A stretch of 64,000 nucleotides of DNA, from positions 4,768 through 68,767 of the forward strand of contig DATHZQ010000007.1 in NCBI GenBank assembly GCA_035458525.1. The letters are read 5' to 3'. The translations under genes and the position numbers were made by a program. The DNA comes from Acidimicrobiia bacterium (GTDB taxonomy: Bacteria > Actinomycetota > Acidimicrobiia > Spongiisociales > UBA5794). This document shows, one piece after another, positions 834-46,340 of the stretch. A model generated the notes under the pieces. It saw nothing but the letters and a program-made list of their open reading frames with translations. It made no database searches and was not told the DNA's origin. Each line of letters begins with the position of its first letter. Positions within the stretch are counted from its first letter, which is position 1.

Positions 834-876
834 TTGCGGCTGATAGTGTCGGCCAGCGGGCAGGGAGGTCGACGCC

Positions 877-2082
877 ATGGCCGTATTGGGCAAGTCGGAT
901 GTCACACGCACGGCGAGCTGGCTGCGGTCGGGACTGCGGGCGGCGGAGGCCGTCGGGCGCATCGAGACGGCCCGCGATGAACCGCTGGCCACAGGCTTTC
1001 TGATCGCCGGGGATCAGCTCGGCGAGCAATTCGCCGGGCAGCCGATCTTCCTCACGGTCGATTACGCGTTCAACGAAATCGCCGGACGCACCGCCGATCA
1101 TGTCGTCTTCGAAGGCCTCTATGACGACCCGACTGCCGCTGCCGATGTTGGCATTCGAGACGTCCTGTGGTCGTCCCAGGAGCTGCACGCCGCCGTCTGC
1201 CTGCTCGATGGCCGGCCCGGTGCGATCGATGGTCTTCGTGCGGCGCCATTGCGGCCGACGCCAGGTGCCGAGGGGTACACGCGGGCCTGGGTCGTCGGGT
1301 ATCCAAAGGGCTTGAGCCTGGCGATGGGGCTCGAGGACAACGAGGTCATCGCGCTCGAGGGGCCGATGATGCACTACCGGACGGCCACGGAGCCGGGCTC
1401 TGGCGGAAGCCCGGTGTTCAACGATTACTGGGAGGTCGTGGCGATCCATGTGCTCGGTCGAGTAGACAAGGGATACAACGCCGGCACTCTGCTCGACGTG
1501 GTGCTCGAGGAAGCGCAAGATGCGCTGCGCCTCAAGAAGTTCGTTGCGTCCTCGGACCCCGCTGCAAGTCCTGTGACCCCGAGTGAGCGACGCGGGACGC
1601 TGTCGGCCTTCATCTCGTACAACAGCAACGACGTGCAGTTCGCCGAGCGCCTCTACACCGCGTTGCAGGGCCGCGGTGTGCGCTGCTGGTGGGACAAGCG
1701 TGACATGGCGCCGGGCGACATCATCGACGCCGGAATCCAAGCCGGCATCAAGGAGTCAGACCGAATACTGCTGTGCTGCTCGAAGAACTCACTCGGCGAC
1801 AGCGCGTGGGTGGATGCCGAGCTGGAGTTTGCGTTCGAACGGGAACGGAAGCTTCACAAAGCGTCCGGCAGCGCCAAGTCCGTCGTGATACCGCTCAACC
1901 TCGATGGCTATCTGTTCGACGGCTTCGAAGGGCCCAAAGGACCACAACTCAGGAAGCGATCCGCCGCCGACTTCACCCAATGGCGTCAACCCGAGGCCTT
2001 CGAGGGCGCAGTCGTTGATCTGCTGAGGGCGCTCACAACGGACGAGGAGACGAGCGACGCGGGTGACGACGGCACCGATTGA
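877..2082 (+). CDS. trypsin-fold domain (catalytic triad uncertain) fused to C-terminal TIR domain
   Basis: N-terminal half has V8/trypsin_2-like strings ATGFLIAG, VVGYPKG, TEPGSGGSPVFND, VVAIHV. C-terminal half is TIR-like: AFISYNSNDVQFAERLYTALQGRGVRCWWDKRDMAPGD and RILLCCSKNSLGDSAWVDAELEFAF (W-x3-E). RBS GGGAGG at 862-867. Confidence 0.8.
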   Translation: MAVLGKSDVTRTASWLRSGLRAAEAVGRIETARDEPLATGFLIAGDQLGEQFAGQPIFLTVDYAFNEIAGRTADHVVFEGLYDDPTAAADVGIRDVLWSSQELHAAVCLLDGRPGAIDGLRAAPLRPTPGAEGYTRAWVVGYPKGLSLAMGLEDNEVIALEGPMMHYRTATEPGSGGSPVFNDYWEVVAIHVLGRVDKGYNAGTLLDVVLEEAQDALRLKKFVASSDPAASPVTPSERRGTLSAFISYNSNDVQFAERLYTALQGRGVRCWWDKRDMAPGDIIDAGIQAGIKESDRILLCCSKNSLGDSAWVDAELEFAFERERKLHKASGSAKSVVIPLNLDGYLFDGFEGPKGPQLRKRSAADFTQWRQPEAFEGAVVDLLRALTTDEETSDAGDDGTD

Positions 2083-6786: not shown

Positions 6787-8313
6787 GTGGCTTTCGAACT
6801 GCCTCGCGCAAAATCGGTAGCTGTCAATCCGAGCCAGGCGGAATTGCGAGCCTGGACGCTCGAATTCATGCCGCGGGTCACCGAGACGACCTTCGGAAAC
6901 CTGAACTACCAGGCGGAGGTCACGGCTCGCCTCGCCCGGTCCACGTTCTTCATCGCCGAAGATGAGATCCATCAGAACCGCATCAGCCGTGCCGAGGCCG
7001 ATGCGTGGGCGGCGAAGCAAGACGCCTACATCGCCGACAAGGACATGATCGTCATCGAGGGCTACATCGGCCCGGACCCGGAGTTCCGGACGGGTGGCCG
7101 GCTGTTCATGGAGAAGACCCAAGCCAACATCCCGGCGATGCAACGCCAGCTCTACTTCGATCCGGACGAGGCGTGGACGCCCGAGTTCACGGTCGTCTAC
7201 ACGCCTGGGCTGCGGGCCCCGGGCAAGCCCGACGACCGCTTGATCATCGTCGACCTGGAGAACTACGTCACGCGTGTGCTCGGCTCTGACTACTTCGGCG
7301 AGTCGAAGATGGGTGGGCTGCGTATGTGGAACCACCTCGTGTATCAACGCGGCGGCTTGGCGCTCCACTCCGGGCTGAAGACCTTCCCCGACGTGGATGG
7401 CGAGGAGAAGGTGGCACTGATCCTCGGCCTGTCCGGGACGGGCAAGACCACGACGACCTTCCGGCAGCAGCTCGGGTCGCTCCCGGTGCAGGACGACTTC
7501 GTCGGTCTCATGCCGGGAGGCAAGGTTTACACCACCGAGAACGGTTGTTTCGCCAAGACCTACGGCCTCGACCCCGACGACGAGCCCACGATCTACGGAG
7601 GGACCACCCGGCCGGACGCCTGGCTCGAGAACACGGCGGTCACCGAGGCCGGAGTCGTCGATTTCTTCGACGACTCCTACACACGCAACGGGCGGTCGAC
7701 GTTCCCGCTGGCCAACATCCGCCACCGGGATCCGCGGAATCTGCCGAAGGCGAACTATCTGCTGCTGCTCAACCGCAACGAGACCATCATCCCGGCGGTC
7801 GCCAGGCTCAAGCGTGAGCAGGCGGCGGCGTACTTCATGTTGGGGGAGACCAAGGGCACGTCGGCCGGCGGCGCCGCCGAAGCCGGCAAGAACCTGCGGG
7901 TTCCCGGTACCAACCCGTTCTTCTTCGACAACGACGCACTGCAGGGGAATCGCTTCCTCGAACTGCTCGAATCGATGCCCGATCTCGAGGTGTACCTGAT
8001 GAACACGGGCCGGGTGGGTGGTCCAGAGTCCGACGAGCGTTCGAAGAAGGTCAAGATTCGCCACAGTTCCGCCGTCGTGCAGGGCATCGTCGCGCAAACG
8101 ATCGAGTGGGAAGAAGACCCGGACTTCGGGTACTTCGTCGCTACGAGGCTGCCTGAGTTCGACGATGCAGACCTGCTGCAGCCGCGGCTGATGTACGAGC
8201 GTCAGGACCGTACGACCGAATACAAGGAGCTGGTCGAGGAGCTGAATGCCGCCCGGCGGGAATACCTGTCCGGTTTCGTCGGATTGGCGCCTACCATCGT
8301 GACTGCTATCTAA
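6787..8313 (+). CDS. pckA: phosphoenolpyruvate carboxykinase (ATP)
   Basis: Kinase-1a loop GLSGTGKTTTT, DDFVGL, NTGRVGG. GTG 6787 is preceded by GAGGAGG. Confidence 0.93.
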   Translation: MAFELPRAKSVAVNPSQAELRAWTLEFMPRVTETTFGNLNYQAEVTARLARSTFFIAEDEIHQNRISRAEADAWAAKQDAYIADKDMIVIEGYIGPDPEFRTGGRLFMEKTQANIPAMQRQLYFDPDEAWTPEFTVVYTPGLRAPGKPDDRLIIVDLENYVTRVLGSDYFGESKMGGLRMWNHLVYQRGGLALHSGLKTFPDVDGEEKVALILGLSGTGKTTTTFRQQLGSLPVQDDFVGLMPGGKVYTTENGCFAKTYGLDPDDEPTIYGGTTRPDAWLENTAVTEAGVVDFFDDSYTRNGRSTFPLANIRHRDPRNLPKANYLLLLNRNETIIPAVARLKREQAAAYFMLGETKGTSAGGAAEAGKNLRVPGTNPFFFDNDALQGNRFLELLESMPDLEVYLMNTGRVGGPESDERSKKVKIRHSSAVVQGIVAQTIEWEEDPDFGYFVATRLPEFDDADLLQPRLMYERQDRTTEYKELVEELNAARREYLSGFVGLAPTIVTAI

Positions 8314-8350
8314 TTCCTGGTTCGCACACTGGGGTAGAGGGGACGACGAC

Positions 8351-11300
8351 GTGGTTGACGCACGTCCGGCCGACGACCGCTGGGTTTCGGACCCGCGATT
8401 CGAATACAACGAATTGCGGCGTCCGGAGTTTGGCATGCTCCGAAAAGGTGGCCTCGATCCCGCCCCCGTCGAGGCCTACGTCACCCGCTTGGAGCGGCTC
8501 GCCAAAGACTTCGTGAGCTTCACACGGGAACTCGAATCCCGCATCGCCCATGCCAAGGCCGAGACCCGGGACGCAAGAGAAGCAGAACGCCGCGCCGTCG
8601 ATGAGGCCATGCTCGCTGCGTTCGAGGCCAAGGAGCGCATCCTCCTCCAAGCGGAGGAGCGTGCGTGGGAGATCGAAGAAGAGGCTCGCAAGCGAGCGGC
8701 TGCGCTGGCTGATGGCGGCGCAACCCAAGTGGCGCCGGACGAAGAGATGCTCGAACTTCGCAAGCGGGTCGCCGAGTTCGAACGCACCGTTGAGGATCTG
8801 GAGATCCAGGTCGACCGCTGGAAGTTGCGGGCGTCCAAGCTCGAGAGCGAGGCGCAGAAGCAAATCGAGATTGCTTCGGAAGCAACCGCCAAGCGCGAAG
8901 AGGCCGAGGCGGCGAGTGCCAAGGCCTCCACGGTGCTGCAGTCCGCCGAGCGCCGCTCGCAGGCCCTGATGGCCGCCGCCCGGGCGGAGGCGGCGCAGAT
9001 CGCTGCCGATGCCGAGGGCGAAGCGGATCGCCTGCGTGCCGAATTGGAAGCGATGCGTGCGGCAGCCTCCGGTGCGGAGCCCAGTGAGGCCTCCCTGACC
9101 GAAGTGCGGCGCCAAGCAGATGCGATTCGTGCGAATGCGGAGAGTGAAGCGCAGCGCATCGTCGCACAGGCCCGCGCCGAAGCCGAAGGCATCACTGCGG
9201 CGGCAACCGAGGACGCCGAGGGTCTGCTTGCGGTCGCCACGACTCGGGCGGATGCTCGGAATCAGAAGGCCACCGCATCGGCAGCGAAGGAGCTCGAGCG
9301 AGCCCAGCGCCAAGCCGCGTCGATGATCGACAAGGCCAAGAAGGAGGCGGATCGCCTCAACGCCGAGTCGGAGACGATGCATGCCGACTTGAGGGAGGCG
9401 CTTGCGTCGTCCGAGGAGAAGGCTGCAGGGCTCGTGGCGGAGGCCGAGGCCAGTGCGGCCGCGCGCATCGACGAAGCTGAGGCACAAGCCGCCGCCAGGC
9501 TCGCAAACGCAGACGATGAGTTGGCGTCCTTGCGCCGGGAGGCGGAAGCGCAGCGCACGGCTGCCAATGCACACGCCGAGAGCATCGCCCAGCAGGCCGA
9601 GGCAACACTGCAATCCGCCCACGAACGAGCCGCCAACCTGTTGACCGAGGCCGAAGCAGATCTTGCCATCGCCGAAGCCGAGGCGCAGACGGCCGTGGCC
9701 GAGGCAGAGCAAGCGGCGGCGGCTCGTATCGCCGAAGCGCAAGCCGAGACAGCAGAGATACGCGAGGCCGCCGAAGCGTCCGCGAACCAGTTGTTGCTCG
9801 CCGCACAGGCCCAGGCGGACGAGGCCGAGAAAGAGGCGTCGGCGTTGGTGGCCGCCGCCCACGTCGATGTGGCCAACATCATCGCCGGCGCCGAGCAAAC
9901 ACGCGCTGCCGCGGTGGCGGAGGCCGAGAAGATTCGCGCTGCTGCCCACAAGGACGCCGAAGCTGCAGCCATCGCTGCCGAAGCCGAAGTGGCGAGCATC
10001 AAGGCGGAGGCGGAGCAAGCGGTCGTCGCTGCCCGCGAAGCAGCCGCCGCTGAGGTCGCCGAAGCCGAGGTGGAGGCGAAGGCACTCGTGGCGAAGGCCG
10101 AGGAATCTGCTGCGGCGATCGACGCTGAGGTGGCCAACGTGCGCAAGACCGCCGAAGAGGCGGCCGCCGCCAAGCTCGCCGAAGCCGAGGAGCGTGCTCA
10201 GGCCAAGCTCGCCGCAGCCGAGCAGGCGGTGGGGGAGGCAGAAGCCGCTGCTGAAGAGGTGCGCCGCGCTGCTGAGGAAGAGGCCGCAGCGATGCTGGCC
10301 GATGCCGACGCCCGCGCAAAAGAACGGCTTGCCGAGGCAGAGAAGGCCGTGAGCGACGCAGAGGCTGCGGCGGAAACGGTGTGGGTCACCACGGAGAAGA
10401 ACGCCGCCGCGGCGCTGGCCGAAGCCGAAAAGTCGGCGCGCGTCAAGCTCGCAGCGGCCGAGCAGGCGGTAGCAGAGAGCGAGCAGGCGGCGGCGCACAT
10501 CCGCCAGAAGGCAGAGGCAGCTGCAGCGACCATGATCGCCGAGTCCGAGGAGCAGGCACAGGCCAAGCTCGCTGCCGCGGAGACGGCCATCGCTGAGAGC
10601 GAGGCCGCGGCGGTTGCAATGCGGAAAGCCGCTGAAGACGCTGCTGCACAGAAGCTCTCCGAGGCCGAGGAGCAAGCCCAGACGAAGCTGGCGATGGCCC
10701 AGCAGGCTGCCGCAGAGGCGGAGACAGCCGCAGCCGACGTCCGCAAGGTCGCCGAGCAAGCCGCAGTTGCGAAACTCGCGGAGGTTGAAGAGCAGGCGGC
10801 GGCCCGTCTCGCCACCGTTGCGGAGGAAGCCGCCGGCCAAGAAGCGGCACTTGCCAAGACCCGCGCCGACGCCGATGCCGCCGCCAACGAGGTGCGGGCG
10901 GGGGCCGAGCAGATCCTGGCCTCGGCGAAAGAGATCGATCGCGAGACCGCCAAGAAGACCAAAGAGGCGCTCAAGGACGCACAGGCCGAAGCTGAGCGGA
11001 TCCGTAAGGAGGCGGCGCTCGAGGCCGAGTCCCTCCGTGGTGATGCGCAAGAGATTCTCGATGCGGCTCGGGCGGAGCACGAACGGCTCCGGCGCCGAGC
11101 CCAAGAGCTCCACGCCGCCGCGGCGCGCGCCGAGGAGGCCGCCGAGAAGGCTCGTTTCGCCGCCGAGCGGACGCGACAAGATGCGAAGGCTGACGCAGCG
11201 GCCTTGCTCGCCGAAGCGGCAGGGACGCTCGAACGTGCCCGTGGCGTCGATCCGAGCGAACGGGTCGAGCGCGAGGTCAAGCAACGCGCCGCTGCGTCGG

Positions 11301-42442: not shown

Positions 42443-43033
42443 GTGGCCGACTACGACTGGCGTGCGTGGGACGAGGAGCCGTGGCAGCTGCGTTACCCCG
42501 GCACCGCAATCGGTGCTGAGACTTGGGTGGAGGTCTTCTCCCCGGACCCCGACAGCGGGGAGATGCGCCGCTGGATCGCAGCGGCACAGCGACTGCAGAC
42601 GGCGGAACGTCCCACCGCCAGGCGGGTCTTCATCTCGCACCGTCGGGCCGATGCCGTCATGGCACAACAGGCCGCCGACGCCGCTCACCGGTTGGGGGTC
42701 GAGTACTGGCTCGATGTCGAGGACCCGACGCTGCAGTGGCTCACGCAGCACACGGCCGTAGACGCTGCCACCCGGTCGACGGCGATTGCGTCGGCGATCG
42801 AGATGGCGTTGCTGAACTGTACGCATGTGCTGGCGATCATCACCCCACGCACCAGCGGTTCTCAATGGGTGCCGTACGAGTACGGCCGGGTCAAGGACGA
42901 CGGCTTGACCGATCGAGCTACGGCCTGCTGGACCACGGTCCATCCGGCCGACACCACGCGGTTTGCCGAGTACCTCCACCTCGGGGTGGTCGCGCGAGGC
43001 ATCGAGGAAGTGAGGACCTGGCTGGTGGCTTGA
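42443..43033 (+). CDS. small TIR-like domain protein
   Basis: RRVFISHRRADAVMAQQAADAAHRLGVEYWLD and THVLAIITPRTSGSQWVPYEYGRV (S-x-W-x3-E pattern). GTG start with a weak RBS. Confidence 0.62.
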   Translation: MADYDWRAWDEEPWQLRYPGTAIGAETWVEVFSPDPDSGEMRRWIAAAQRLQTAERPTARRVFISHRRADAVMAQQAADAAHRLGVEYWLDVEDPTLQWLTQHTAVDAATRSTAIASAIEMALLNCTHVLAIITPRTSGSQWVPYEYGRVKDDGLTDRATACWTTVHPADTTRFAEYLHLGVVARGIEEVRTWLVA

Positions 43034-44214: not shown

Positions 44215-45075
44215 GTGGACCTTCCCGCATCGACCAACGCCGAAGGCGTTCGAGAGAATCTCGCCGCAACTCGATGGCTGATCGCCCCGTTCGTGGTGCT
44301 CGCCGGGGCAGGCGCATTCGTCCTGTATCTGTTTCCACGAGACACGGATGCGTTGTTCGCATGGACACTGCGACCGCCCCTCTCGGCGATGTTCATGGGC
44401 GCCGGATATGCGGCAGGAGTGCTGCTGACCGTGCTGTCGTACCGCCGCCAACCTTGGGCGGTCACTCGTACTGCGACGTTGACCATTCTCGTGTTCGTCG
44501 CGGTGATGACGGCCGCCACCTTCCTGCATCTCGACAAGATGCACTTCGACGCTGCGGAGGTGACGGCCCAGTTCGCCGCCTGGGCTTGGCTCGTCGTGTA
44601 CGTCGTTGTCCCGCCCCTCCTGCTGGCCATCATCGTGGCGCAATCCCGCCAACCCGGAGTCGATCCGCCTCGACTCCACCCGCTTCCCGTTGCCGTGAGG
44701 GCCGCGCTCGCTCTCCAGGGGCTCGCTTTGCTGTCGCTCGGTGTGGCGTTGTTCGGTTGGCCGGAGTCCATGGATGGTGTGTGGCCGTGGGCCATCACCG
44801 AGCTCTCCGGCCGCGCCTTGTCGGCATGGATCGTTGCGATCGGGTTCGCCAGCCTGTGGGTGACGTACGAGAACGATCTGCGCCGCACCCGTCCTGCCGC
44901 CATGACCTCTGTGGCGCTTGGTGCGTTGTGGCTGCTGGCCGCAATTCGTGATGCTGACTCGATGCGCTGGGAGCGAGCCTCGGCTTGGATCTATGTGGTT
45001 GGTGCAGCGCTTGCGGTGTCCGTGGGGTTGTGGGGCTGGTCGCTGAGTCGTGGGGCGGTAGGGTCGGAGGGGTGA
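44215..45075 (+). CDS. hypothetical polytopic membrane protein
   Basis: About 8 hydrophobic helices with GC3-rich codons. No motif recognised. Confidence 0.5.
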   Translation: MDLPASTNAEGVRENLAATRWLIAPFVVLAGAGAFVLYLFPRDTDALFAWTLRPPLSAMFMGAGYAAGVLLTVLSYRRQPWAVTRTATLTILVFVAVMTAATFLHLDKMHFDAAEVTAQFAAWAWLVVYVVVPPLLLAIIVAQSRQPGVDPPRLHPLPVAVRAALALQGLALLSLGVALFGWPESMDGVWPWAITELSGRALSAWIVAIGFASLWVTYENDLRRTRPAAMTSVALGALWLLAAIRDADSMRWERASAWIYVVGAALAVSVGLWGWSLSRGAVGSEG

Positions 45076-46340
45076 GCCATGTCTCCGGCGGAACCTTCGC
45101 CCTGCGTTCCCGCTTCCCGGCGCCCGGTCAGGAAGTACGTCGTGGCGGAGCCACGATTCTTGAGCGTGATGGTGCCGCGCCGTTCCAACTCGTAGTGCTC
45201 AGGCAGCATGCCGGCGAAGAGGCCCGAGACCTGGATGCGCCCCGGCACACCCGTTGATTCGAGGCGGCTGGCCACGTTGACGGCATCGCCCCACAGGTCA
45301 TACGCAAGCTTGCGCTTGCCGATCACGCCGGCGACCACCGATCCGGTGTGAACGCCGATGCGCAGGTCCCACTCGATGCCGTTTTTCGCGGCGAACTGGT
45401 CGGTAGCGTCGATCATCTGGAGTGCGAGATCGGCGATCAGTGGCGCATGATCCGGGTGCGCAACGGGCACGCCGCCGGCGACCATGTAGCCGTCGCCCAG
45501 CGTCTTGATCTTCTCCACGCCACTTGCGCTCACGAGGTCGTCGAACTCCGAGAACAGCCCATTGAGCAAGTTGACGACTTCGTCGGGCTCGTGCGATTGC
45601 GCGAACGAGGTGAACCCGACGATGTCGGCAAAGAGCACCGTCACCACGTCGAATCGTTCCGCCACGGTTGCGTCCGATGCCTTCAGCCGCTCGGCGATCT
45701 CCTGCGGCAGCATGTTGGCGAGCAGACGATCAGCCCGTGCTCGCTGATCCAGCGCATCCTCTTCGGCGAGGAAGAGACGGCGGTTCACAGCATCGAACAC
45801 AAACCAGAACGACAGCGCCAACGCCGCTGCGAACGCCATCCACGTGTTGACGTTCACCCACGTGAGCCTGGATGCGGTTGTGTCGGCGAGGTACAGGTTC
45901 GGGATCACAACGGCAATGGCGCACAGCAGCACCATCGAGCGCAACGTGATCGCCAGCAGCGGCAGCAGCGCGATCGACAGGGCGAGCCCGGCAGCGCCGA
46001 CGAGAAACCCCTCTGGCAACTCGGTGAGTACCCAGGAGAAGCCTCCCACGATGACCGCGGTCGACACCGCCTGGAGGAGGCCGTGATACCTGGCGAGCGG
46101 GGTGAGGGTCAGCAGGAACAGTGCAAGCAGAATGCCTGCGAGCGCCAGTCGAATCGCAACCGTGTCCCCGAGGAACCCTCCGTTGACCTCGCGATCCCAG
46201 ATCATGAAGACGAGCACTGAGGCGGCGCCGGCGACGGCGGACAACCGTTCGAACGGCGTCACCTGTGCCGTGCGGAAGTCAACGTACCGTTCGAGTTGAT
46301 CGGCGGTGAGCGTCGGCCGTGCCAGGTCTGGAGCGTGCAC
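44991..46340 (-). CDS. membrane-anchored class III adenylate/guanylate cyclase
   Basis: Six N-terminal helices, then VTVLFADIVGFTSF, KIKTLGDGYMVAGG, IGVHTGSVVAGVIG, YDLWGDAVNVASRLES. Confidence 0.9.
   Translation of the reverse strand: MHAPDLARPTLTADQLERYVDFRTAQVTPFERLSAVAGAASVLVFMIWDREVNGGFLGDTVAIRLALAGILLALFLLTLTPLARYHGLLQAVSTAVIVGGFSWVLTELPEGFLVGAAGLALSIALLPLLAITLRSMVLLCAIAVVIPNLYLADTTASRLTWVNVNTWMAFAAALALSFWFVFDAVNRRLFLAEEDALDQRARADRLLANMLPQEIAERLKASDATVAERFDVVTVLFADIVGFTSFAQSHEPDEVVNLLNGLFSEFDDLVSASGVEKIKTLGDGYMVAGGVPVAHPDHAPLIADLALQMIDATDQFAAKNGIEWDLRIGVHTGSVVAGVIGKRKLAYDLWGDAVNVASRLESTGVPGRIQVSGLFAGMLPEHYELERRGTITLKNRGSATTYFLTGRREAGTQGEGSAGDMAHPSDPTAPRLSDQPHNPTDTASAAPTT

Follow-up and report, generated by a model that had tools for sequence, protein, structure and literature searches.

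A trypsin-fold pseudoprotease fused to a TIR domain in an uncultured acidimicrobial lineage: a candidate single-protein conflict system

Introduction

What might a protein do that joins a degenerate protease to a TIR domain and is encoded amid genes of central metabolism? The question is raised by a gene in a 64-kb stretch of DNA (hereafter the window) from an uncultured Acidimicrobiia MAG. An earlier note, made from the letters of the sequence, described an open reading frame of 401 aa at positions 877..2082 of the plus strand; it is present as described, with an ATG start and the stop codon included in these coordinates. An identical protein is held at NCBI as HSF84138.1, under the name 'TIR domain-containing protein [Acidimicrobiia bacterium]'. 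The N-terminus of the 401-aa protein contains neither a signal peptide nor a hydrophobic segment, and the fusion protein is therefore predicted to be cytoplasmic. As detailed below, the protein is plausibly a self-contained antiviral switch and not a housekeeping enzyme.

A trypsin fold without its triad

The N-terminal domain (aa 8-215; 898..1521, plus strand) consists of two beta-barrels with a conserved helix (aa 13-23) in front of them. Its proposed trypsin/V8 fold is borne out by a match to Pfam Trypsin_2 over aa 38-190 (E=3.5e-11; 44.5 bits, cut-off 27.6). In the full-length AlphaFold (AF2) model (pLDDT 80.8), this part scores mostly 80-96, and Foldseek matches the model to DegS, HtrA, Spl and V8 proteases at E~1e-11. 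Two hallmarks of PA-clan (S1/S1B-like) serine proteases, the HMM match and the double beta-barrel fold, are thus found in the protein, and the third, the His-Asp-Ser triad, is missing. In family alignments, Tyr63 (TAC, 1063..1065, plus strand), His104 (CAC, 1186..1188, plus strand) and Gly176 (GGC, 1402..1404, plus strand) appear to occupy the His, Asp and Ser positions, in agreement with the triad loss suspected previously. Where the family has LTN-x-H-V, (E/Q)LD(A/V)(T/S) and GS-S-GSP, the clade of the query reads LTVDYAF and ELHAAV and the query itself GS-G-GSP, and the catalytic Ser of V8, Esp and SplB aligns gaplessly with Gly176. The triad positions, like that of Glu315 in the TIR domain, were placed by sequence alignment rather than by structural superposition. 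His, Asp and Ser occupy the triad positions in 77 of the 80 genome-derived relatives listed and in 135 of 163 representative relatives. Judged from these alignments, none of the three triad residues survives in the N-terminal domain, which makes it a trypsin-fold pseudoenzyme, a member of the fold and not an active protease.

The substrate-binding side of the domain is better preserved, with the oxyanion-loop glycines and the S1-pocket Thr and His retained in the query. Across a 163-member alignment, Thr171, His191, Gly174, Gly177, Ser178, Pro179, Tyr167 and Trp185 are invariant or nearly so, degenerate members included. Thr171 (1387..1389, plus strand), near-invariant at 159 of 163 members, aligns with Thr164 in the S1 pocket of V8-type glutamyl endopeptidases, and the invariant His191 (1447..1449, plus strand; 163/163) aligns with His184 of the same pocket; we take these two V8 residues to have a role in Glu recognition. 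The query thus shares its fold, the architecture of its GxSGxP region and the two aligned S1 residues with V8/Esp/Spl glutamyl-type endopeptidases and with HtrA/DegS. However, those enzymes are active and are secreted or periplasmic, whereas the query is predicted to be cytoplasmic, lacks the triad and is fused to a TIR domain.

The TIR domain

The C-terminal part (aa 243-385; 1603..2031, plus strand) consists of a TIR domain and a C-terminal helical extension. The TIR domain claimed by the earlier note is recognized by Pfam TIR_2 (PF13676) at aa 245-375 (E=2.7e-22; 80 bits, cut-off 28) and also by PF01582 (29.4 bits, cut-off 21.3). For an AF2 model of the TIR part only (pLDDT 76), the top 50 Foldseek matches in the PDB are all TIR domains, with TM scores up to 0.68, in keeping with the flavodoxin-like TIR fold; they include those of TLR15, RUN1, PdTIR, AbTir, SARM1 and SPARTA, the last resembling the query at TM 0.68. 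A WxxxE motif, in TIR domains an element of helix alphaC, lies at 1807..1821 (plus strand), from Trp311 (1807-1809) to Glu315 (GAG, 1819-1821). Glu315 had been singled out as the catalytic glutamate of this motif and appears to be correctly placed, given that Trp311 and Glu315 align with W204 and E208 in 'dWtnyE' of AbTir, as well as with WCLDE of RPV1 and WPQKE of PdTIR. The role of the WxxxE motif in TIR domains has been described, and the E208A substitution in AbTir abolishes activity (PMC10641520). In alignment, non-enzymatic TLR TIR domains also keep the catalytic Glu, so NADase activity requires the residue but does not follow from its presence alone. The query TIR domain apparently belongs to the intact, NADase-competent subclass.

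A protease family with links to TIR

The family of the N-terminal domain is very large, with 17,818 protein clusters, and its members typically combine TPR-S with an active trypsin domain. By tblastn, aa 2-197 of the query are 30-38 % identical to at least 79 loci, the N-terminal helix being included in the homology. The protease domain by itself brought up just 6 proteins in a word-indexed search, so an exhaustive profile search was needed; at E<=1e-30 it recovered 2,717 representative clusters. The query carries the TEPGS(S/G)GSPVF motif of the family and lacks the TPR-S domain (PF20308) present in 61 of 85 typical members.

This family is genomically linked to TIR. In an HMM-based count with a control locus set, TIR ORFs occurred within 4 kb of TPR-S-trypsin genes at 18 or more of 80 loci, compared to none of 80 control loci. 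This link suggests a candidate Thoeris-like type with a trypsin-fold effector. Triad loss was found in 19 of 23 members fused to TIR, DUF4062 or nSTAND1 and in 9 of 218 others (Fisher p=7e-18, with kinship ignored and degenerate members included in the profile used for sampling). Fusions have occurred independently and in both domain orders, and they do not require triad loss, since four TIR fusions of the family retain an intact triad. Given that TIR genes adjoin the parent protease genes and that triad loss tracks fusion, the gene resembles a Rosetta-stone fusion, in which a TIR domain has been joined to a degenerate copy of the protease that is its partner.

Part of a 2020 work by Burroughs and Aravind reportedly predicts a TIR/TPR conflict system to which the TPR-S plus trypsin family belongs. 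This bears on the suggestion that the architecture was one not recognized from any described system. It holds insofar as no PADLOC or NCBIfam model matches the protein over its full length, all matches being confined to the TIR part; the pairing itself is not unprecedented, and because the protease family is already coupled to TIR in the predicted system, the fusion would be a rearrangement of known partners. Relative to the TPR-S and Trypsin_2 proteins (PF20308 plus PF13365), the query has a homologous protease module, but it is without TPR-S, its triad is destroyed and its TIR domain is provided in cis rather than by a neighbouring gene.

Comparison with other conflict proteins

TIR or TIR-like domains are combined with the same protease family in several other arrangements, including reverse-order proteins (P0023, P0024 and P0048), a TIR-TPR-S-pseudoprotease (P0077) and DUF4062-pseudoproteases (P0028/29/51/81), in which DUF4062 is the TIR-like domain. 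As in the query, the triads of these relatives are degenerate (YNG, YGG, YDG, HDG and FVG) and the cleft residues are kept. Some pseudoprotease relatives are fused to nSTAND1, whereas a STAND NTPase domain was not detected in the query. The TIR domain of the reverse-order proteins is of ThsB type (PADLOC PDLC00420, E~1e-55), while that of the query is nearest to pentapeptide-repeat-TIR proteins; with domain order opposite and TIR subfamily different, the two represent independent fusion events. The pentapeptide-repeat-TIR proteins (P0006-P0022) provide the closest TIR cassette: about 50 % of residues are identical across aa ~243-390, a span that takes in the C-terminal helical extension. Their TIR domain is C-terminal, as in the query, but their N-terminal module consists of pentapeptide repeats instead of a trypsin fold. 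The same TIR cassette therefore carries a different N-terminal domain in other bacteria, which suggests a modular design of variable N-terminal module and TIR effector. The best PADLOC match of the pentapeptide-repeat-TIR proteins is PDC-S66, in the TIR part only. The query also matches this 282-position model (E=1e-10), though only at positions 141-235, again the TIR part.

Inactive trypsin domains have precedent in vWA-MoxR ternary conflict systems; for these domains, peptide binding or dominant-negative regulation has been put forward as a role (Kaur, Burroughs, Iyer and Aravind 2020, eLife; PMC7159879). Those domains have likewise lost their catalytic residues and occur in conflict proteins, but they are fused to the vWA components of systems that comprise three genes and depend on MoxR, and not to TIR. 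The idea of dead trypsin domains as peptide-binding conflict modules is thus already noted and is not new here.

Several TIR-based systems provide functional parallels. Like Thoeris ThsB, the query is small and predicted to be cytoplasmic, and combines a catalytic-Glu TIR domain with a variable non-TIR region of the kind thought to sense phage; it differs from Thoeris in having pirin and glpD as neighbours and no adjacent effector of ThsA type, be it SIR2-SLOG, TM-Macro, caspase-like or similar. The NCBIfam model of Thoeris type III ThcB4 scores 22 bits on the query, far below its cut-off of 220. In TIR-SAVED, TIR-STING, SPARTA TIR-APAZ, Cat1 TIR-CARF and Pycsar/Pucsar TIR proteins, a ligand-binding domain steers oligomerization of the TIR NADase, and an analogous arrangement is proposed here. 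However, the sensors of those systems bind nucleotides or a guide/target duplex and need an upstream signal generator, whereas the putative sensor of the query is a dead protease. No cyclase, CD-NTase or Argonaute gene adjoins the fusion gene, and the sole cyclase in the window lies 43 kb away. The SAVED_TIR model is matched by the TIR part only (positions 11-95 of 404), and the protein has no cyclic-nucleotide-binding Pfam domain (SAVED, STING or cNMP-binding) of the kind fused to TIR in CBASS and Pycsar effectors. The previously reported absence of the usual partners is confirmed at the level of models, with no ThsA, SAVED, STING or Argonaute model matching any of the 54 other window ORFs. 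A PADLOC screen of these 54 ORFs gave generic matches only, in addition to a second, weak TIR 40 kb off. This is a second orphan TIR gene, at 42443-43033, likewise situated amid metabolic genes.

Proposed mechanism and alternatives

The account that we favour, tentatively and at a little short of even probability, is that the product is a TIR-based conflict protein of the antiviral or abortive-infection type, cytoplasmic and made up of a single polypeptide, a putative NADase gated by a peptide-binding pseudoprotease. The dead protease cleft would still bind a peptide or protein ligand, probably by accepting an acidic side chain in its Glu-type S1 pocket, and this ligand may be a protein of the phage or one of the host that infection has altered. 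Binding would lift autoinhibition or drive self-association, the latter assembling the TIR domains into a composite NADase site at which NAD+ is consumed. Because no partner effector is encoded nearby, the infected cell would most likely just be depleted of NAD+ and stop growing; alternatively, a cADPR-type signal might be produced. That the pseudoprotease acts as the sensor is entirely our inference.

The main competitor keeps the sensing step and changes what follows. The protein may be a ThsB-like signal generator, in which the pseudoprotease senses infection and a messenger made by the TIR domain (cADPR-type or ADPR-derived) activates an effector encoded elsewhere, for example one containing TPR-S, SLOG or Macro domains; the query would then be an orphan Thoeris-type sensor and not a self-contained killer. 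The ThsB-type TIR domains of the reverse-order proteins P0023 and P0048 fit this proposal, as do Pfam ThsB_TIR matches in the closest TIR relatives and the TIR gene neighbours of TPR-S-trypsin genes. TPR-S, carried by the parent protease family, is itself a predicted receptor of signals made by TIR proteins and occurs in ThsI, the cADPR-responsive effector of type VIII Thoeris (10.64898/2025.12.03.692087; BcTir/Tpr preprint). Against this, the ThsB matches of the query itself are weak and partial, the best in PADLOC covering part of the TIR domain only (E=1.3e-5, 22.8 bits), and no ThsA-like, SLOG, Macro, SAVED or TPR-S protein was detected in the 64-kb window. Thoeris genes, moreover, usually adjoin one another. 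We consider a ThsB-like role unlikely, though the most probable of the alternatives.

Distinctly less probable is a role as the substrate or regulator of a true protease. An active TPR-S-trypsin paralogue encoded elsewhere might recognize the pseudoprotease, by heterodimerization or substrate mimicry, and cut the linker to free the TIR domain of a pro-enzyme; alternatively, the dead domain might damp the protease as a dominant-negative regulator. The linker (aa 216-242; 1522..1602, plus strand) is variable, predicted to be disordered (pLDDT <50 at aa 228-239) and fast-evolving (dN/dS 0.2-0.5), as such a cleavage site might be. At locus L004, the only same-order relative among the species-representative matches listed, the Trypsin-TIR gene clusters with an active TPR-S-trypsin gene. 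Dominant-negative regulation was among the roles suggested for the inactive trypsin domains of vWA-MoxR systems (PMC7159879), and in other systems trypsin-like domains have been shown to activate immune effectors by proteolysis (PMC12799240). However, no paralogue of either domain was detected in the window at the phmmer/HMM level, and the four close homologues have dissimilar neighbourhoods, none of them with an adjacent TPR-S-trypsin gene.

A broader form of the favoured account, that of a self-contained NADase switch, can be considered for the family. Dead trypsin folds might be recurrent, hitherto unrecognized pattern-recognition modules of bacterial immunity, the protease of this family having turned repeatedly into a non-catalytic peptide sensor in direct control of TIR, TIR-like DUF4062 or STAND NTPase modules, with the query as a minimal single-chain version; we regard this generalization as possible but rather doubtful. 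The pseudoprotease would serve as bait for a phage protein, a phage protease inhibitor or a substrate mimic, and the TIR NADase would be switched on without a second messenger or partner gene. Should the favoured reading be right, a single gene would supply a compact immune switch whose receptor has been recycled from what was once an effector enzyme. Eukaryotic pseudoenzymes and the 'integrated decoys' of plant NLRs show the same idea of recycling. A simple rule for the >17,000-cluster family would also follow, by which an intact triad denotes a protease effector under a TPR-S sensor, and a lost triad combined with a TIR, DUF4062 or STAND fusion denotes a protease-derived sensor. In either form, the gene adds a candidate to the TIR-based defence architectures, from a poorly sampled, uncultured actinobacterial lineage.

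Genomic context and distribution

The local context of the gene in the window is central metabolism (pirin, glpD, PMM, aldolase and PEPCK) and not a defence island. As reported earlier, the gene begins 43 bp after the pirin stop (833) and ends 12 bp from the convergent glpD stop (2095), such that it fills the 1.25-kb gap between pirin and glpD but for these two spacers. A Shine-Dalgarno-like GGGAGG, read from the sequence, precedes the ATG by 8 nt; the motif is as first described, at 863..868 (plus strand) instead of 862-867, a shift of 1 nt. The GC3 of the gene (0.79) is near that of its neighbours (0.82-0.85), and its GC content is also slightly lower.

Such surroundings allow for a non-immune role, in which the protein, co-transcribed with pirin, would regulate stress responses or metabolism in a manner linked to NAD+, and its TIR domain would act in normal physiology as an NAD+ hydrolase or scaffold. 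The gene had been described as having no operon partners, which is accurate for linkage elsewhere but too strict locally: pirin lies on the same strand, 43 bp 5', with no terminator-like site in between, making co-transcription possible. A promoter and terminator scan of the spacer found nothing, using a sigma-70 consensus ill-suited to a high-GC actinobacterium. Compatible with the non-immune role are also the housekeeping neighbours, the identical locus in a sister strain, the near-native GC3 and the metabolic setting of the second orphan TIR gene. Conservation, however, speaks against it. None of the homologues whose neighbourhoods were inspected shows linkage to pirin, and the fusion gene is absent beside glpD in 80 of 80 related loci; the closest glpD loci, at most 69 % identical, lack both pirin and the fusion gene, a pattern that denotes non-conservation rather than a clean insertion site. 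Nor was a close orthologue found among the matches listed from a genome collection of 185,579 species. A conserved, syntenic housekeeping orthologue, the search for which the earlier note had proposed, was not found; neighbourhoods differ and the distribution is patchy. Close homologues (72-78 % identity) adjoin a resolvase, a NACHT NTPase or a giant alpha/beta-hydrolase-CHAT-TPR-S protein, and homologue neighbours also include a DUF4062/CAP12-TIR/TPR-S-trypsin island. At locus L164, a partial upstream gene carries TPR-S at its C-terminus, unlike the arrangement of the TPR-S-trypsin family. Considering in addition that the Trypsin_2 and TIR families are both typical of conflict systems, we hold a non-immune function to be improbable, and slightly more so than activation by a protease.

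A mobile-element origin was also considered and rejected, with no phage match and no plasmid match covering at least 80 % of the protein. IMG/VR contains only two matches to the protease family, both weak.

Selection and allelic variation

The ORF is intact in four lineages 72-78 % identical, in which dN/dS is 0.12-0.15 for the whole ORF, 0.14-0.19 for the pseudoprotease and 0.05-0.06 for the TIR domain, indicative of purifying selection on both domains. A sister contig (L002) is 99.5 % identical and has the same locus layout, but lacks one base at 1629..1629 (plus strand), the third base of codon Asn251, which frameshifts the gene at the start of the TIR domain; gene calling there gives two ORFs, of 336 aa and 90 aa. 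The majority of SNPs relative to this contig cluster in the inter-domain linker. Unless it is an artefact of assembly, this TIR frameshift in a near-identical strain would show the gene to be dispensable. The intact allele occurs on at least seven contigs and the frameshifted allele on one. The fusion gene is also very rare: 5.8 billion proteins contain approximately four clusters of it at 90 % identity. If the favoured reading of a pseudoprotease-gated TIR protein is wrong, the gene would be a rare, dispensable domain shuffle.

Loss of all three catalytic residues, the frameshifted sister contig and this rarity could together indicate a decaying remnant, in which a protease gene is pseudogenizing and the fusion lacks function. 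The maintenance of the ORF under selection in four lineages, the strict conservation of binding-cleft residues and the preponderance of the intact allele make this very unlikely. Hardly credible, finally, is a non-canonical active protease in which Ser175, one residue before the usual nucleophile, acts with another base: Ser175 is kept in 153 of 163 family members and several relatives of the HDG class combine His and Asp with Gly at the nucleophile position, but in the query His and Asp are replaced too (Tyr63 and His104), position 104 is H, N, G or D among TIR-fused relatives and hence not under catalytic constraint, and the gapless alignment with V8, Esp and SplB sets the nucleophile at Gly176.

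Gene and protein architecture

The 401-aa open reading frame reported in the earlier note is present at 877-2082 (+) with an ATG start, as are its spacers, 43 bp from the stop of the same-strand pirin gene to its start and 12 bp between its end and the stop of the convergent glpD. The GGGAGG box read as its ribosome-binding site is also real, and lies one base from where it had been placed (862-867), at 863-868 (+), 8 nt 5' of the ATG. The protein contains a Trypsin_2 domain (aa 38-190; E=3.5e-11, 44.5 bits; Pfam cut-off 27.6) and a TIR_2 domain (aa 245-375; E=2.7e-22, 80 bits; Pfam cut-off 28), and in its AlphaFold2 model (mean pLDDT 80.8) a disordered linker (aa 228-239) connects two folded halves. 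The N-terminal half resembles DegS/HtrA, SplB and V8-type proteases (Foldseek, E~1e-11). All top 50 matches of a TIR-only model (pLDDT 76) are TIR domains, among them the NADases RUN1, SPARTA TIR-APAZ, AbTir and SARM1. Since no signal peptide or hydrophobic stretch can be read from the sequence at the N-terminus, the protein is predicted to be cytoplasmic, in which it differs from V8/Spl proteases. An identical protein from a metagenome-assembled genome is deposited in NCBI as HSF84138.1 ('TIR domain-containing protein [Acidimicrobiia bacterium]').

Catalytic positions of the two halves

The protease half had been described as carrying degenerate His, Asp and Ser boxes, and alignments with relatives from a 5.8-billion-protein collection, 80 listed genome loci and 150 representatives of an exhaustive profile search bear this out. 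Tyr63 occupies the catalytic His position (LTVD-Y-AF versus LTN-x-H-V in relatives), His104 the Asp position (EL-H-AAV versus EL-D-ATL) and Gly176 the Ser position (GS-G-GSP versus GS-S-GSP); in PDB alignments, the nucleophile Ser of Esp, V8 and SplB likewise falls opposite Gly176. The triad is intact in 77/80 genome-derived members among the listed loci and in 135 of the 163 aligned representatives. As judged from its sequence, the protein belongs to both the TIR superfamily and the trypsin fold, yet it is not an active protease, because the triad is lost. Tyr167, Thr171, Gly174, Gly177, Ser178, Pro179, Trp185 and His191 vary little or not at all in the whole family, degenerate members included. 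Thr171 and His191 align with Thr164 and His184 of V8-type glutamyl endopeptidase, which line the Glu-binding S1 pocket.

The placing of Glu315 in a W-x3-E context also holds: Trp311 and Glu315 align with W204 and E208 of AbTir ('D-W-TNY-E'), and match the equivalent WxxxE of RPV1 and PdTIR. This motif has been described in AbTir, where W204 is important for cADPR production and E208A serves as an inactive control (PMC10641520).

A separate sub-class of the family (P0026, P0028, P0029, P0033, P0034, P0051 and P0066) keeps His and Asp with Gly at the nucleophile (GS-G-GSP), and a conserved Ser175 adjoins that position; these proteins are either inactive or work through the shifted Ser.

Triad loss and fusion partner

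All three positions could be aligned in 241 family members. Where TIR, the TIR-like domain DUF4062 or the nSTAND1 NTPase is the fusion partner, 19/23 have a degenerate triad, versus 9/218 of the others (Fisher p=7e-18, ignoring phylogeny, in a sample that includes four non-independent proteins of the clade studied here and was drawn with a profile containing degenerate members). Four TIR fusions retain H/D/S. The degenerate triads, written as residues at the His/Asp/Ser positions, occur in same-order Trypsin-TIR proteins (YHG in the present clade, HNS in a Vicinamibacteraceae relative), in reverse-order TIR-Trypsin proteins (P0023, YNG; P0024, YGG; P0048, YDG), in the TIR-TPR-S-Trypsin protein P0077 (YDG), in DUF4062-Trypsin proteins (HDG, FVG) and in nSTAND1-(TPR-S)-Trypsin proteins (YDG, HDG, YDS), with His-to-Tyr recurring across several of them. 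In the nSTAND1 fusions the dead protease is C-terminal, the usual place of the sensor in STAND proteins. That triad loss goes with the fusion partner offers a hypothesis of general reach that can be tested across a very large family. In ternary conflict systems, the trypsin domains attached to vWA components have almost all been found inactive, and have been suggested to be peptide binders or dominant-negative regulators (Kaur et al. 2020, PMC7159879).

The parent protease family

A profile search with the N-terminal domain reaches 17,818 representative clusters at a threshold of E<=1e-3, of which 2,717 pass E<=1e-30. The typical member, ~540 aa long, combines TPR-S (PF20308, 'TPR-Sensor'; 61/85 sampled members) at its N-terminus with an active protease at its C-terminus; the TPR-S domain has been lost in the fusion. 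A TIR-domain ORF lies within 4 kb of the parent-family gene in at least 18 of the 80 listed loci, versus 0/80 controls run through the same pipeline (Fisher p=2.6e-6). Most of these TIR ORFs have a WxxxE motif, and one extra neighbour, missed by the TIR HMM, combines an AbTIR-like TIR with TPR. The fusion is thus, from its domain content, apparently of the Rosetta-stone type, joining a TIR domain to a degenerate copy of a protease that is normally encoded separately near TIR genes. Burroughs and Aravind (in J Bacteriol, 2020) reportedly predicted that the TPR scaffold perceives NAD+-derived signals made by TIR domains. The same domain forms the TPR part of ThsI, an effector of type VIII Thoeris that responds to cADPR (Sorek-lab preprint 10.64898/2025.12.03.692087), and a Tir/Tpr pair from B. 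cereus has anti-phage activity (preprint 10.1101/2023.05.26.542521). Directly upstream of the protease, 30/80 listed loci encode a ~316-aa putative alpha/beta-hydrolase (GxSxG 'HSMG'; a weak identification). ORFs for SIR2-like, SLOG-like and GH108 lysozyme proteins also recur around these loci (L005-L083, within the 80 listed). Taken with the TIR and hydrolase ORFs, they resemble a candidate Thoeris-like type whose effector has a trypsin fold.

Distribution and genomic context

The fusion is patchily distributed and has conflict-type neighbours. Its architecture is very rare: the clade comprises four clusters at 90 % identity, with one further same-order relative (35 %), among the matches listed, in a Vicinamibacteraceae MAG. 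A sister contig (L002, JGI 3300041024; 99.5 % identical) retains the pirin/glpD/PMM/aldolase/PEPCK surroundings and carries the equivalent of 877-2082 at 8001-9205, where the loss of one nucleotide (window position 1629, codon Asn251), outside any homopolymer, frameshifts and truncates the TIR domain. The two copies also differ by six SNPs, grouped in the linker and where the TIR domain begins, and the intact allele is found on at least seven contigs; the deletion is either a true population-level inactivation or an assembly error.

More distant homologues have other surroundings. The 78 % homologue lies in a different neighbourhood, adjoining a serine recombinase (resolvase). The 74 % homologue has a TPR-S protein on one side and, on the other, a protein of >1,748 aa (L164 1948-7191) with two alpha/beta-hydrolase domains (DUF7379), a caspase-like CHAT domain and TPR-S; after the 72 % homologue comes a STAND NTPase of NACHT type (L165 2588-3346). 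In the Vicinamibacteraceae MAG, the four genes of a compact conflict island (L004, JAHDVQ010000075.1, 7346-12106) encode, in order, a DUF4062 protein, the Trypsin(H-N-S)-TIR protein, a CAP12-Pycsar-type TIR protein and an active TPR-S-trypsin, bringing three TIR-like and two trypsin-family genes together. In 80 metagenomic loci that carry a relative of glpD (55-69 % identity), neither the fusion gene nor pirin adjoins glpD, even in the five that retain the glpD-PMM pair. These differing neighbourhoods argue against a conserved syntenic housekeeping orthologue, which the earlier note had held would count against its reading. No phage record matches the protein, no plasmid record matches >=80 % of it, and viral contigs give just two weak matches to the protease family. 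In the window the gene stands outside any defence island; its GC3 of 0.79, versus 0.82-0.85 in its neighbours, gives a faint hint of foreign origin.

Comparison with known systems and proposed mechanism

Membership of Thoeris, a role as CBASS/Pycsar TIR effector, a STAND receptor and PADLOC PDC-S66 were each considered and rejected; the protein is placed outside all four because it lacks defining features of each. Full-text literature searches turned up no account of a fusion of trypsin and TIR acting in defence. The sensor-gates-TIR logic, both building blocks and inactive trypsin domains in conflict systems are already known. The gene is rare, of putative function, from an uncultured host and built from a known toolkit.

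At sequence level, the protein has an intact-looking TIR catalytic motif and a conserved, non-catalytic protease cleft, with purifying selection on both halves. Its TIR cassette is modular, with ~50 % identity to the TIR of pentapeptide-repeat-TIR proteins. In the mechanism proposed here, the pseudoprotease would bind a peptide or protein ligand, and binding would control self-association of the protein, assembling a composite TIR active site. Such sites form by self-association in AbTir, SARM1, SPARTA and plant TIRs. NAD+ would then be depleted or turned into a signal, and the infected cell would stop growing. That the protein is a self-contained NADase version of this mechanism is tentatively preferred.

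It is rather unlikely that the protein generates a signal, as ThsB does, for an effector encoded far away. Its reverse-order relatives match the ThsB model strongly (P0023 and P0048 against PADLOC PDLC00420, E~1e-55, model positions 3-170 of 319; L003 7559-8809), whereas its own ThsB matches are weak and the 64-kb window holds no partner; none of the genes annotated around P0023 is an obvious ThsA. A pro-enzyme or regulator acting with an active family protease is quite improbable, and a non-immune role tied to pirin more doubtful again. A non-functional relic is very unlikely: Nei-Gojobori comparisons of the window with the three full-length homologues for which DNA is available (L001, 78 %; L164, 74 %; L165, 72 %) give dN/dS values of 0.14-0.19 in the pseudoprotease, 0.05-0.06 in the TIR domain and 0.2-0.5 in the linker. 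These values are rough, with dS near saturation, yet they show the pseudoprotease to be clearly constrained and not a decaying relic. A non-canonical active protease is hardly credible.

Other loci in the window

A 1,044-aa ORF at 8351-11482 (+), common to the sister contig, has a weak DivIVA-like N-terminal match, otherwise no Pfam domain, and no PADLOC match. When 54 window ORFs were compared with PADLOC, single matches to MzaA (E=1.4e-35), mad3 (8.5e-24), mad8 and AriA were obtained, which may be generic ATPase or kinase similarities. A second stand-alone TIR protein (196 aa; 42443-43033 (+); TIR_2 32.5 bits, Pfam cut-off 28) has weak ThsB/SAVED_TIR PADLOC matches and its own WxxxE motif (SQWVPYEYG). 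Its gene, too, has metabolic surroundings, with an aminotransferase gene on one side and a P-loop kinase-like one on the other, ~40 kb from the trypsin-TIR fusion, and a partnership between the two is without support. About 2 kb from it, with three genes intervening, a membrane-associated nucleotidyl cyclase of class III (MASE8 + Guanylate_cyc; 44994-46340 (-)) matches PycC, the PADLOC model for Pycsar cyclases, at E=3e-18, and may be a generic signalling cyclase or form a loose Pycsar/Pucsar-like pairing with the second TIR protein.
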